Positions 33,830-54,831 are shown, counted from the stretch's first letter. The stretch is 60,466 nucleotides of DNA from an uncultured Acidimicrobiales bacterium (GCA_938040365.1 CALHXU010000013.1:1-60466), one strand, 5' to 3'. The notes: a model not told the origin generated them from the sequence alone. Made by a program: numbers and translations.

Positions 33830-34759
33830 TCACCTACATCGCGGATCGACTGCGCTGCCTTCCAAACCCTTGCGTACCTTTTCGACGGCGAGAGCCCATT
33901 CTTCCTCAACGGATCGCTTGCGAAAGCGGTCCGCAGCGCTACCAGCGCTTTGGGGCGTTGAATATCCGAAGCGCTGTGCGAGCTCACGAAGAGACAGTCC
34001 ACCAAGCTCTTGGCATAGCCCGAGGCTCACGAGGCGTTGGTCACCAGAATCCCCAAAGACCCGACGCACCTCCTTACAGATTTCCTCAGGCGTCGGGCGG
34101 GCAACACCTGCTCGCAGGTGCCCAATGGTCTGATCGTCAACAGTGGACCGAGCGAGCACAGCATTCACGAACGGACGGTCACCGATCACCTGCGGAAACA
34201 TCGATGGATCGAACGGGGTCAACGACTCCGACAACGTCCATCTCCGAAGTTGCTCAACGGTCTCGACGCCTGCCATCGCAAGTGCTCCCGAGTACAGCCA
34301 CGAGGGCTGTGATTCCGCAGCCAAATGAAAGTCGAAATAGCTCGACCACTCATATTTGTGCAGGTTTTGAGGTTCGACCAGCGCCAATGGATTGCGATGG
34401 ACATATCGAACGACCGTGTCGAGGTACGCGTCCGAGTCCACCAATTTCGCTCTGAAACGACCTCGAAACAGCGGTCCATCCACGCCGTGCCTTCGGTTGA
34501 ATCGCTGAGCGAAGACTCCATCGACGTACTGGATAGCCTTGCTCAGCTCACCCGTCGGAGACCGAACTACTAGGTGATAGTGGGTGCCCATAAGTGCATA
34601 GGCGTGGACTTCCAGACCGTACCGTGCGTGCGCCACTCCAAGTAGCCGCAAGAAGTCCCAGCGATCTTCCGCGTCACGGAAGATTGTCTCCTTCCGCCGC
34701 CCACGGTTCATTACGTGGTGCCACGCACCCGGATAGTCGATTCGAAGCTGACGAGCCAT
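33830..34759 (-). CDS. IS200/RayT-like Y1 (HUH) transposase with C-terminal HTH extension
   Basis: HUH motif in HAYALMGTHYHLVV, catalytic Tyr region VVRYVHRNPL, and N-terminal AWHHVMNRG. There is an extra C-terminal region of about 130 aa (LSLRELAQRFGYSTPQSAGSA, HTH-like). No tnpB partner. Confidence 0.8.
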   Translation of the reverse strand: MARQLRIDYPGAWHHVMNRGRRKETIFRDAEDRWDFLRLLGVAHARYGLEVHAYALMGTHYHLVVRSPTGELSKAIQYVDGVFAQRFNRRHGVDGPLFRGRFRAKLVDSDAYLDTVVRYVHRNPLALVEPQNLHKYEWSSYFDFHLAAESQPSWLYSGALAMAGVETVEQLRRWTLSESLTPFDPSMFPQVIGDRPFVNAVLARSTVDDQTIGHLRAGVARPTPEEICKEVRRVFGDSGDQRLVSLGLCQELGGLSLRELAQRFGYSTPQSAGSAADRFRKRSVEEEWALAVEKVRKGLEGSAVDPRCR

Positions 34760-36342: not shown

Positions 36343-36466
36343 ATTCGATTCCTTACTGGTACGAGCGTTCTGCGCGGATGGGCAACTCTAGACAAGTCCA
36401 GTACAGATATCCGACACCAGCGGCGATTGCACGCTACGCTGATCACACAACTTCATCTGCCATCAG

Positions 36467-36658
36467 CCGGATCGAGAGAGCGCTCACCGTCTCACAAAGA
36501 GACGACCGGGCCGCCGAAGGTGCAAGGGTTGCGGTTTGCCAAAGCCGTGATTCGAAACTCTCAGGCAAACGGATCGACCCGGTGGCATTCTCTGGAGAGC
36601 CGGTTCAGTTCGCTGAACCGCACCGACGGGGCACCAATCTCTCAGGTCCAGGACAGAG
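36467..36658 (+). promoter_or_regulatory. tandem glycine riboswitch (two aptamers)
   Basis: Aptamer 1 spans about 36467-36576: CGGAUCGAGAGAG...CCGCCGAAGGUGCAA...CUCUCAGGCAAACGGAUCG. Aptamer 2 spans about 36590-36658: CUCUGGAGAG...GCACCGACGGGGCACC...CUCUCAGGUCCAGGACAGAG. It lies directly upstream of gcvT. Confidence 0.85.
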
Positions 36659-36719: not shown

Positions 36720-37847
36720 ATGAGCAACCTTAAACGAACTGCCCTCTTCGATTGGCACGTCGCCAACGGTGGCCGCATGGTCGACTTTGCTGGCTGGGAG
36801 CTTCCGGTCTTCTACGAGACCGGCGCCATCGAGGAACACCACGCCACGCGTAATTCGGTCGGCCTGTTCGACATCGACCATATGGGCCAGCTCGACGTCA
36901 CCGGCCCTGAGGCTACGGCCTTGGTCGACCGGCTCGTCACTTCAGACATCGAAACCACGCCGATCGGTGGCGCGAAATACGGCTTGCTGTGCCACGACGA
37001 TGGCACAGTCATTGACGACGTCATTACGTACCGGCTCGCCGAGGACCATCTGATGGTCGTCGTCAATGCGTCGAACCGGGAGACAGACGCTGCGTGGTTC
37101 GCCCAACACAGCGCCGATTTCGAGGCCACAGTCACCGACCGATCGGACGAACTGGCGATGATCGCCGTCCAGGGCCCAAACGCTGTCGCGCTGATCGATG
37201 CCGTAACCACGATCGATGTGAGCGCCGTTGACCGTTTCGGTTCAGCCAGGATCGAACTCTTTGGCACCACTGCATTGCTGGGCCGCACCGGCTACACCGG
37301 CGAGGACGGTGTCGAGCTGTATATAGAAACATCGACCACCGGCATAGGTGTGGTCGAGGCGTGGAATGGACTTTTCGATCGTGCCGACGAGCTCGGGATC
37401 GCTGCACACGCCATTGGGCTCGGGGCGCGCGACAGCCTGCGCTTCGAACCCGGCTACCCGCTCTATGGCCATGAGTTGAGCCGCGAGATCAACCCCTTCG
37501 AGGCTCGCCTCAGTTGGGCGGTCGACCTCACCAATGAGGCTGGTGAAGATCGAGATTTCATCGGAGCGATCGCGCTGCGTCGGGTGAAAGACGTCGGCGT
37601 GACCCGCCGACTCGAAACGCTCACGATGATCGATAAGGGCGTGCCCCGCGAGGGGTCGACCGTCGTCGACGCCGACGGCAACGAGCTTGGCCCGGTGGTC
37701 AGTGGAATGTTTGCTCCGACCGCCGACGTTTTCGCCTGCAATGCCTTCCTGCCAGTCGGTACTGAAGTCGGTACCGAACTCGCCGTCGCTATCCGCGGCA
37801 AACACAAAGCCGCCGCCGTCACCAAACGCCCCCTCCACCGCCCGTAA
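36720..37847 (+). CDS. gcvT: glycine cleavage system aminomethyltransferase (T protein)
   Basis: 375 aa. [27 protein letters not shown] and [13 protein letters not shown] are classic GcvT. Confidence 0.95.
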
Positions 37848-52183: not shown

Positions 52184-52744
52184 CTAGAGCAGGTGGGCAA
52201 CTCGGTCGAGGAGGTGACGGCCGACGATTGCTAACCAGATCAGATACGGAAGCCCCACCGTGAGCACTGCGTATTTGAGCGGAATGAAGCGGCTGTACTG
52301 GACCGAGAACGTAAGCAACGTCGGGAACCAAAGACTGAACGCGAACACCGCAAACACCAAACCTGGACCGGTGATTTGGAGCAGCCCGGTAAAGAAATAC
52401 AGTACGGCGCCGAGCATCAGCACCGGCCGATGCGCAAGACCCACCGAAGTCAGGGTAGTGACGAGGTTTGGCTGATCGGCATTGGATCCAACACGTTTTG
52501 TGACCACTCCCCCGATGAACCAAATCGACGCGCCGAGGCCGAGCCAACCCCAGACGACAAAGAGCGCCAACTGCGCGAACTCTTGGGGAGAATGGATGAC
52601 GAGACCACCAAAGCGATTGAACGCGAGCACGATCGAGGTGCCAAACACCGTGAACGCCCCAACGAAGAACATCTCGGCACTGATCGACCGCCACCGACCC
52701 GGATGCAACGCAAAGAGGGTCTTCAGAGCCGTCATGGTTGCCAT
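52184..52744 (-). CDS. hypothetical 5-TM membrane protein (Yip1-like topology)
   Basis: 186-aa hydrophobic ORF with no diagnostic motif. Its first 14 nt are part of a duplicated 42-nt element. Confidence 0.5.
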   Translation of the reverse strand: MATMTALKTLFALHPGRWRSISAEMFFVGAFTVFGTSIVLAFNRFGGLVIHSPQEFAQLALFVVWGWLGLGASIWFIGGVVTKRVGSNADQPNLVTTLTSVGLAHRPVLMLGAVLYFFTGLLQITGPGLVFAVFAFSLWFPTLLTFSVQYSRFIPLKYAVLTVGLPYLIWLAIVGRHLLDRVAHLL

Positions 52745-52828
52745 ACAGTCAAACGTGGCGCTTGCGCCACACTCTCGGTCATGGCCGTCATGGTTGCCAT
52801 ACAGTCACTTGTGGCGCTAGCGCCACAC
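52731..52828 (+). repeat. two copies (56-nt period) of a roughly 42-nt element that includes the start codon region of the 52184-52744 gene
   Basis: GTCATGGTTGCCATACAGTCA-N4-TGGCGCTTGCGCCACAC at 52731-52772, and the same with one substitution (TGGCGCTAGCGCCACAC) at 52787-52828. Each carries the palindrome GTGGCGC-N-GCGCCAC. Confidence 0.9.
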
Positions 52829-52836
52829 GCCTTCCC

Positions 52837-53871
52837 TTAGTTCTCAATTGTCCAGACCTCCGCGTTTGGCCAGAAGGTGGCGACGTCGTCGGGGAACGAG
52901 GTGAGGGCCGGGAGGATGTCCATGATCTCGGTTATCGGACCACCGAGCGGCAACCCTCGCGCTGGATCAAACGTGGTGCCGGTAACGGTGTCGACCAACA
53001 CATCGCCCTCCACTGCCAGCTCGACAAGGTTGTCACCAACCCGTCGCGAGAACACGTTCCAACTCTGCGGGCTCGTTGGATCACTTACGACGGCGATCTC
53101 GACACCGGCGACGACATCGTTGACCACGTTTACTCGCCGTAGATCGGCAACCGGATAGGACCGAGCCTCGGCGCCGAAGTCGACCACGATATGAAAGTCG
53201 CCAAGATCAAACCCGGAGTTACCGCCGGGCGCGTCGAGTGCGAGCGAATCTGGATGGTCGGCAAGCCACGCGGACCACGTCGTGAACTGCGATGGCAACA
53301 ACTCGACCGTGTCGCCCTTGCGAGGCCCAGCGATTGCCTCACCAGTTGGCTGGCTCCAGATGCTTCCAGTGTCGTGATCCCACCAGGTCATGGCGTTTCC
53401 CCACAGGGCTCCGTGGACGCCAAAGACCAGCGTGTCGTCTCCCAACGTGCGGCGATGAACCATCGCCGTTGCGCACAACGGTCACCAACTGACGAGTATC
53501 GGTTCGCCGCCGACATCATCGACGACTAACTCTCTGCCTCCGAGGAAGCTGACCGGATAGGCCTTTGCCTCACCGTTGATCTCGACACCGATCACCTCGG
53601 TGCCGGCAGGCCACGGGCTCTCGAAGGCCCGCACGAACGTCGGCTCATAGATCGGCGAGATGCCATCTCGCGGAAGCAGCTGGCGAAATCCCTCGGGTAG
53701 GTCCTCACCCGCAACGACCGGGTCATAAACATCTGCGGGGTTCGCCCGCACCCCCGACGGCAATGCGGTTTGCGAGGAACTTGCAGAGAACGCCCAGCCG
53801 GTGAGCGCAATGAGCGCGACGAACATCGCGCCGAGCACAACCGGTGATGGACCTTCGACCTTCCGCGGCAC
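52837..53871 (-). CDS. exported DUF3179 domain protein interrupted by one in-frame TGA (candidate selenocysteine codon, or pseudogene)
   Basis: Track ORFs 53482-53871 and 52837-53478 are in the same frame, separated only by a TGA (53482-53484) and one Pro codon. Together they form one DUF3179 domain (GVEINGEAKAYP ... FGVHGALWGNAMTWWDHDTGSIWSQ) behind a signal/TM segment. GTG start at 53869-53871. Confidence 0.6.
53442..53481 (-). other. SECIS-like stem-loop immediately 3' of the in-frame UGA
   Basis: mRNA: UGA-CCGUUGUGC-GCAAC-GGCGAUG-GUU-CAUCGCC-GCACGUUGG. The upper stem is 7 perfect bp with a GUU loop. The lower stem has 9 positions (6 WC, 2 GU, 1 UU) with a 5-nt 5' bulge between the stems. 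Confidence 0.45.
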
Positions 53872-53874
53872 TTC

Positions 53875-54831
53875 TCAGACCTTTGGTGGCGTTCCGTTAC
53901 CGAACGGACGGCCGCCGAGCGCTTCGCGCCCGTGTGGCGTGTTCAATCCCGAAGTGTCAGGGCCCTTTGGGGTGACGCCGGTCGGGTTGATACCGGTGTG
54001 CACTTCGTAATAGTGCGCCTTGATGTTGTCGAAGTCGATCGTGTCACCAAAGCCGGGCGTTTGGTAGAGGTCGCGCAGGTAGCCGTAGAGCGCTGGCATC
54101 TCCGAGAGCTTGTTGCGATTGCATTTGAAATGGTTGTGATACACCGCGTCGAAACGGATCAACGTCGTCCAGAGCCGGATATCGACTTGGGTGATGGTGT
54201 CGCCAACCAAGAAGCGCTGGTTCGTGAGTCGGTCCTCGAGCCAATCGAGACGGGCAAAGAGTGCGTCGTAGGCCTCCTCGTGTGCCGATTGGCTCGACGC
54301 AAACCCGCTCTTGTACACGCCGTTGTTGACGTCGTGAAAGATAAGGTCGCTCACCTCGTCTATTTCAGCACGATGTTCGTCGGGCCACAGGTCGGGTGCG
54401 CCTTCCCGGTGGAACGCCGACCATTCTTTCGAGAGGTCTTCCTCAATCGATGGGAAGTCGTTGGTGACCACCGAGGTGGTGGGAAGGTCGACGATTGCGG
54501 GAACGGTGATTCCTCGGGGGTAGTCGGGAATTCGATTGAAGAATGCTTCTTGGAGCTTGTGGATGCCCATGACCGGGTCGAGACCGTCGGGGTCGAGGTG
54601 AAAGTTCCAGCTCGACGCGTCGTGGAGCGGTCCGGCGAGCCCGACCGAAATCGCCGACTCCAGCCCCAACAGCCGATGGGTGATGAGTGAGCGGTTGGCC
54701 CACGGGCACGCGTGCGCGACAACCAACCGATACCGGCCCGCTTCGACCGGCCATCCGTCGCTGCCATCGACGGTGATGCGGTCGGGGATGTAGTTCATAT
54801 CCCGGTCAAACTTGCCTTCGGTCTTTGCCAT
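53875..54831 (-). CDS. glutathionyl-hydroquinone reductase (Xi-class GST, YqjG/ECM4-like)
   Basis: GRYRLVVAHACPWANRSLITHRL carries the CPWA active-site motif of GS-HQRs. 318 aa. The stop is 3 nt before the DUF3179 start. Confidence 0.85.
   Translation of the reverse strand: MAKTEGKFDRDMNYIPDRITVDGSDGWPVEAGRYRLVVAHACPWANRSLITHRLLGLESAISVGLAGPLHDASSWNFHLDPDGLDPVMGIHKLQEAFFNRIPDYPRGITVPAIVDLPTTSVVTNDFPSIEEDLSKEWSAFHREGAPDLWPDEHRAEIDEVSDLIFHDVNNGVYKSGFASSQSAHEEAYDALFARLDWLEDRLTNQRFLVGDTITQVDIRLWTTLIRFDAVYHNHFKCNRNKLSEMPALYGYLRDLYQTPGFGDTIDFDNIKAHYYEVHTGINPTGVTPKGPDTSGLNTPHGREALGGRPFGNGTPPKV

Follow-up and report, generated by a model that had tools for sequence, protein, structure and literature searches.

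On the minus strand of a 60,466-nucleotide stretch of DNA from an uncultured Acidimicrobiales bacterium (Actinomycetota), hereafter the window, two adjoining open reading frames are very probably a single gene, a selenocysteine (Sec)-containing member of the DUF3179 family in which an internal UGA is the predicted Sec codon. From the comparative sequence evidence given below we put the probability of this reading at about 0.93. A preliminary description of the same DNA had proposed its core, namely that in an exported DUF3179 protein a UGA for Sec takes the place of the first Cys of CxxC, with a SECIS hairpin after it, and comparison with relatives now lends this proposal strong support. The description had also called the selenoprotein undescribed, which was wrong, as two reviews and the naming used by NCBI already have DUF3179 as a predicted selenoprotein family.

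DUF3179 (PF11376, UxxC/T) is tabulated as a selenoprotein family in PMC9312934 (2022) and is listed under 'Predicted with high confidence' in PMC13188914 (2026), and both reviews credit Zhang & Gladyshev 2007 (NAR 35:4952) for the family. Its status in the reviews is that of a prediction and not of an experimentally verified selenoprotein. The passages of the 2007 text drawn on here use older family names (OS_HP1-3 and others) and do not contain 'DUF3179', so the link between that work and DUF3179 rests on the tables of the reviews. NCBI names relatives from Acidimicrobiia and Ilumatobacteraceae 'DUF3179 domain-containing (seleno)protein'. Compared by description, the listed family has the same Pfam domain and the same UxxC Sec position as the window gene, Cys homologs exist and a stem-loop lies past the UGA, as they do here, and nothing essential differs. 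The DUF3179 selenoprotein family is therefore already described, and its detection in the window is correct and not novel. The gain in biology is small given that the family was already catalogued as a predicted selenoprotein. Modest additions are that a great many Acidimicrobiia relatives have the Sec form, that its SECIS, a hairpin of 19 nt, hardly varies, that Cys forms with fossil hairpins point to repeated conversion of Sec to Cys, and that a Yip1-like gene is a conserved neighbour. The family passages of PMC9312934, PMC13188914 and the 2007 paper mention neither how prevalent the Sec form is in Acidimicrobiia nor the Yip1-like partner.

Read on the minus strand from 53871 to 52837, the frame runs for 344 codons with a single internal stop, a TGA at plus-strand positions 53482-53484, which translation places in the context ...GGEPILVSW*PLCATAMVHRR.... 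The ORF listing gives two ORFs in this same frame, 53482..53871 and 52837..53478, with the TGA and one Pro codon as the gap between them. The features of the gene are as follows.

52837..53871, minus strand: predicted DUF3179 selenoprotein read-through gene, 344 codons including Sec, assigned by Pfam on the fused protein
53871, minus strand: putative GTG start of the DUF3179 gene, the longest option, 3 nt past the stop of an upstream GST-like gene
53788..53844, minus strand: N-terminal hydrophobic segment (PVVLGAMFVALIALTGWAF), a putative signal peptide or membrane anchor
53482..53484, minus strand: UGA predicted to be read as Sec, first position of U-P-L-C (UxxC), in the Cys column of homologs
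53473..53475, minus strand: TGC (Cys), second residue of the UxxC pair, unchanged across 77/77 Sec forms and every Cys form
53450..53468, minus strand: predicted core bacterial SECIS hairpin CGGCGAUG-GUU-CAUCGCCG, 8 bp, 19 nt, -11.7 kcal/mol
52837-52839, minus strand: TAA stop codon of the DUF3179 gene

When the two halves are fused and U is replaced by C, the protein is matched by PF11376 (DUF3179) with E=1.8e-49 and 169.2 bits against a cut-off of 27, while no family-specific NCBIfam model matches it. Homologs that are 48-85% identical span both halves of the fused protein, and the hallmarks of DUF3179 are present, made up of the C/U-P-L-C motif and downstream invariant residues (H, R and W-D-H-x-T-G-S-x-W-S-Q). 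Translation, the ORF listing and the Pfam match reproduce what had been described earlier, two minus-strand ORFs in one frame separated by a TGA and a Pro codon whose read-through yields one DUF3179 domain of about 344 codons. Relatives carry an equivalent hydrophobic segment with basic residues before it, and this N-terminal segment would place the DUF3179 domain outside the cytoplasm, either exported or anchored.

The TGA falls on the column of a conserved Cys. Searching for homologs at E<=1e-10 gave 1139 proteins, and 41 of the best 120 were full-length; the motif was located in 40 of these 41, and each of the 40 has W-C-P-L(V)-C at the TGA column, in agreement with the earlier assignment of the TGA to the conserved first Cys. 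The other 79 of the best 120 protein clusters are fragments of about 206 residues that begin at a Met 7 codons past the TGA, which indicates that gene callers split the same TGA-bearing gene in many genomes, Acidimicrobiia assemblies among them. Since standard gene callers split the gene, the two window ORFs should be merged and annotated as one selenoprotein. At the DNA level, the 80 closest relatives were compared, taken from species-representative genomes nearly all labelled Acidimicrobiales or Acidimicrobiia and 55-85% identical in protein. The codon at the TGA column was TGA in 76 and TGC in 2, with 1 mis-registered locus and 1 contig end; as the relatives were picked for their resemblance to a Sec form, 76/80 is not to be read as an unbiased frequency. 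Together with the window, the TGA-carrying set amounts to 77 distinct sequences.

The half of the gene downstream of the TGA is, judging from the sequences compared, clearly not decaying. Its frame stays open for 212-240 codons in 76/77 TGA-carrying sequences. Selection downstream of the TGA, which the preliminary description had suggested as a test, is purifying: by the Nei-Gojobori method with the hairpin codons excluded, dN/dS between the window and its five closest relatives (L001-L005) is 0.08-0.15 downstream of the TGA and 0.09-0.20 upstream. The median for 289 unsaturated pairs is 0.35 on the downstream side and 0.27 on the upstream side, and these ratios are approximate as synonymous sites are near saturation in many pairs. 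The sole TGA-carrying relative with a shortened downstream frame (L007) remains open for about 68 codons past the TGA; its locus has a masked run of N upstream, and an assembly or masking artefact is possible, rather than decay. As a separate observation, Sec-DUF3179 genes 55-71% identical to the Acidimicrobiales ones occur on nine contigs (L011, L034, L036, L041, L050, L052, L076, L079 and L080) in metagenome-assembled genomes labelled Gammaproteobacteria, Verrucomicrobiales, Kiloniellales, Acidobacteria, Gemmatimonadales, Boseongicola or Saprospiraceae. Such contigs in genomes outside Acidimicrobiia are likely to be mis-binned or the result of horizontal transfer.

Past the UGA lies a hairpin encoded inside the codons for T-A-M-V-H-R-R. 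RNAfold of the window sequence gives an upper stem GGCGAUG/CAUCGCC of 7-8 bp closed by a GUU loop at 53458-53460, the loop beginning 21 nt past the UGA, together with a lower stem. The published constraints on bacterial SECIS elements, as PMC13188914 states them, are a loop of 3-9 nt, a stem of 4-16 bp, a spacing of 16-37 nt, a minimum free energy (MFE) of <= -7.5 kcal/mol and a G within the first two loop positions. The window hairpin satisfies all of them, with 8 bp, the loop GUU, 21 nt and -11.7 kcal/mol, as do 75/77 sequences of the TGA-carrying set. Against the bSECISearch consensus (Zhang & Gladyshev 2005, as drawn in Fig. 2 of PMC13188914), the loop, stem, G-then-U, spacing and MFE of the window element are all in range, and the loop may be counted as 3 nt or as a 5-nt G-GUY-C that fits N1-G-[G|U]-N-N2; the element differs from the consensus model in that it has no conserved lower stem.

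The stability of the single sequence is not unusual, so the support for the hairpin is comparative. The window fold is no better than chance when set against shuffled sequences (z=-0.54), and at random positions in the window, which is 61% GC, 44% yield a hairpin that complies with the bacterial SECIS constraints, and at 13% the stability of the gene's own hairpin is equalled or exceeded. Across the 77 sequences, CGGCGAUG-GUY-CAUCGCCG is nearly invariant. The hairpin codons are ACG in 77/77, GCG in 76/76, CAT in 77/77, GTY in 76/77, and CGC in 70 with CGT in 6, the CGT sequences retaining a G.U pair. Synonymous entropy at the hairpin codons is 0-0.65 bits, whereas residues elsewhere that vary just as little have 1.1-2.0 bits; one His, 14 codons further on, is encoded by CAC in 34 sequences and CAT in 9. 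In the upper helix 99.3% of cells are paired and the sole recurrent change is C to U, which keeps a G.U pair; compensatory double changes in this helix were absent among the 77 sequences, so the evidence is one of invariance. The preliminary description was right about the upper stem and the loop 21 nt past the UGA. The nine-position lower stem that it added is found in the window fold and is not conserved in relatives, where 64% of cells are paired, no better than in shuffled controls, and it was rejected as part of the SECIS. On these comparisons the predicted functional element is the 8-bp upper hairpin. A scan of the region against Rfam at a permissive threshold found no SECIS family, the best matches being unrelated with E>0.3, which is expected given how poorly bacterial SECIS elements are represented in Rfam.

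The SECIS of E. coli fdhF is a hairpin in the coding region immediately 3' of the UGA with G-U in its apical loop, and the spacing from the UGA to its stem is about 11 nt. The window element resembles it in lying directly 3' of the UGA, within the coding region, and in having G-U in the apical loop. It differs in sequence, in showing no evident bulged U and in a stem spacing of 13 nt.

The peptide encoded by the hairpin goes largely with the Sec form, and the hairpin is linked to the TGA. TAMVHRR is kept in 72/76 Sec forms and in 6/41 Cys forms, the latter showing 17 variants at this position. The nearest relative in the set of the six TAMVHRR Cys forms is a Sec form for five, and for the sixth a Sec and a Cys form tie. 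DNA for Cys forms was sought in metagenomes with an exact-peptide pattern, which gave 2 loci, and with added look-ups six distinct genes were obtained. The hairpin is kept in three of these (L081, L084 and a second copy in L083) and lost in the others (L082, L019 and L048); as half of the six retain it, the contrast in the hairpin itself is not absolute, and the contrast at the peptide level was used instead. Among the loci, L081 and L084-L086 keep the hairpin, while L082, L019 and L048 lost it through synonymous or near-synonymous changes and still encode the TAMVHRR peptide. On one metagenome contig (L083), a Sec-form DUF3179 gene (TGA, 297) lies directly upstream of a Cys-form paralog (TGT, 1424), and the Cys copy still bears a SECIS-like hairpin. 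We interpret the hairpins retained in Cys forms as fossil SECIS elements that recent conversions of Sec to Cys would have left behind, and their distribution suggests that such conversion happened repeatedly within the DUF3179 family.

Elsewhere in the window TGA serves as a normal stop. It ends 16/42 Pfam-supported ORFs, and in relatives it also ends the DUF3179 gene itself, in an ATGA overlap with the next gene, so that TGA is not reassigned in this genome. Domains of SelA, SelB and SelD were absent from the approximately 52 ORFs scanned in the 60-kb window, as would be expected if these genes are unlinked. The window has no tRNAs of any kind, and no tRNA-Sec turned up in the 10 kb on either side of the first 60 related loci. 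In Actinomarinales, another order of the class Acidimicrobiia, a 2026 preprint reports selA, selB, selC and selD in all 84 complete genomes. A search for other TGA-interrupted genes in the window gave 3 candidates, all antisense to long ORFs, and no independent selenoprotein was found there.

Several other readings of the TGA have to be weighed against Sec insertion. As the preliminary description had itself considered, the TGA might be a recent nonsense mutation that marks a pseudogene, or a TGC or TGT rendered wrongly in sequencing or assembly, as either codon is one step from TGA, the contig is known from one assembly and its exact C-terminal fragment is on record nowhere else. Against this, the identical TGA recurs in 76/80 of the closest relatives, in independent assemblies and at 55-85% protein identity, the frames downstream are intact in 76/77 with dN/dS of 0.08-0.15 past the TGA, and the RNA hairpin linked to the TGA is conserved at synonymous sites, all of which leave mutation or error effectively excluded. 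It is only slightly easier to suppose that a conserved UGA does terminate translation, giving an N-terminal polypeptide of 128 residues and a C-terminal one of about 208 through re-initiation at the AUG 7 codons on, with the hairpin aiding termination and re-initiation. That AUG is nearly invariant (75/77 sequences) and is the start that gene callers chose in 79 clusters; yet it belongs to the hairpin stem, and single-chain Cys forms have either Met or Leu in its column. A split at this point would also break up the CxxC motif, together with a fold that is predicted to be single and compact (AlphaFold2, pLDDT 93), in which the model of a single-chain Cys homolog has a strand leading straight into the motif. 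The stretch P-L-C-A/G-T-A between the UGA and the AUG is strongly constrained, with P, C and T invariant, and this would be unexplained if it were untranslated, while the C-terminal fragment would have no export signal. Two separate polypeptides are, on balance, very improbable.

Reassignment of UGA occurs in some bacterial lineages, and given this precedent, and with no Sec machinery seen in the 60-kb window, the UGA could be supposed to stand for a standard amino acid (Trp, Cys or Gly), the codon having been reassigned or being read through independently of a SECIS. The use of TGA to close 16/42 Pfam-supported window genes and the DUF3179 gene of relatives (ATGA) speaks against reassignment, the scan of the window gave no further interrupted gene, and a UGA placed exactly on the Cys of CxxC and followed by a conserved hairpin of the bacterial SECIS type is the signature of Sec. 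Decoding as a standard amino acid is thus extremely improbable, and insertion of Sec at the UGA is the reading that we retain. By the established bacterial mechanism, the SECIS hairpin would bind SelB-GTP-Sec-tRNA(Sec) and deliver Sec-tRNA to the UGA, where Sec would be inserted in place of termination. The predicted product is a protein of about 340 residues with a U-x-x-C site, which the N-terminal hydrophobic segment would export or anchor outside the cytoplasm. The UxxC may then form a selenol/thiol redox centre or a metal-binding centre, and this centre could act together with a co-transcribed Yip1-like membrane protein.

The genes on either side of the DUF3179 gene are as follows.

52184..52744, minus strand: polytopic membrane protein of 186 aa, putative divergent member of the Yip1-domain family, downstream of the DUF3179 gene
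53875-54831, minus strand: GST-like protein of 318 aa (GST_C_2, weak GST_N_2), ending 3 nt before the GTG of the DUF3179 gene

The Yip1-like gene is the only conserved neighbour: 46/81 loci have it next to the DUF3179 gene, on its downstream side and in the same orientation. In the closest relatives the two genes overlap in an ATGA that holds both the ATG of the Yip1-like gene and the stop of the DUF3179 gene. PF04893 (Yip1) matches 5/12 homologs of the downstream protein, with a best E=3.8e-10. The window copy has no Pfam match even at E<=10, and its membership in the Yip1 family would rest on its homology to the members that PF04893 does match. No conserved Cys was found in this protein family, whose members are about 190 aa in length. 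The Yip1-like protein is likely to be a functional partner of the DUF3179 protein. The GST-like gene is found at the same position in three close relatives only (L001, L002 and L005).

To approach the fold of the protein, an AlphaFold2 model was made of a Cys homolog (P0004) that is 64% identical to the window protein, with 40 sequences in the alignment. The model is confident (pLDDT 93.3, pTM 0.90) and mostly beta, and it appears to be made of two similar halves. Foldseek against the PDB gave no strong match, the top ones being consistently Rieske [2Fe-2S] domains at E of about 1e-2, with a TM of 0.5-0.58 by the target, a ferredoxin of approximately 100 residues, and 0.2 by the query. From a reading of the sequences, the first cluster-binding loop of Rieske domains (e.g., BphF, PDB 1FQT) follows a beta-hairpin, and so would the U/CxxC loop of DUF3179. 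The Rieske ligand set CxH...CxxH is absent from DUF3179, which has CxxC only. A relationship at the sequence level was rejected, as hhalign against BphF gave a probability of 0.2% and no Rieske Pfam model matched at E<=10. A profile search against the PDB gave no match, and a marginal sequence match in the PDB to a gluconolactonase (E=0.016) was disregarded. DUF3179 is not a member of the Rieske family and would bear at most a distant resemblance to it in fold.

A bolder and rather doubtful proposal draws these strands together. The protein might be an extracytoplasmic, two-domain, Rieske-like beta-sandwich in which the U/CxxC loop, perhaps with the invariant His at +9 and the D-H of W-W-D-H-x-T-G, forms a selenium-containing metal or redox centre that works with the translationally coupled Yip1-like protein, the Sec form being the default in Acidimicrobiia. 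If this were true, it would describe an uncharacterised extracytoplasmic selenoenzyme system, though the selenoprotein family itself is already listed.

Some minor observations concern the DNA around the gene. At 52723-52828, in the interval from the DUF3179 stop to where the Yip1-like gene starts, the window contains two tandem 50-nt copies that are 88% identical and spaced by 56 nt, each containing a GC-rich 17-nt palindrome, GTGTGGCGC(T/A)AGCGCCAC, followed by TGTATGGCAACCATGACGGC. The latter resembles a remnant of the ancestral junction between the two genes as relatives have it, in which T-W-Q-P-stop overlaps the ATG; this junction was apparently duplicated about an inserted palindrome. 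No further copy of the palindrome exists in the window, and none of the related loci has it at this position. The only mobile-element-like gene seen in the window is an ORF at 33830-34759 on the minus strand with an IS200-like Y1 transposase domain (E=5.5e-9). On the plus strand, a tandem glycine riboswitch at 36463-36658, whose two aptamers score 53 and 38 bits, precedes gcvT (36720-37847) and gcvP (to 40809) in the standard arrangement.
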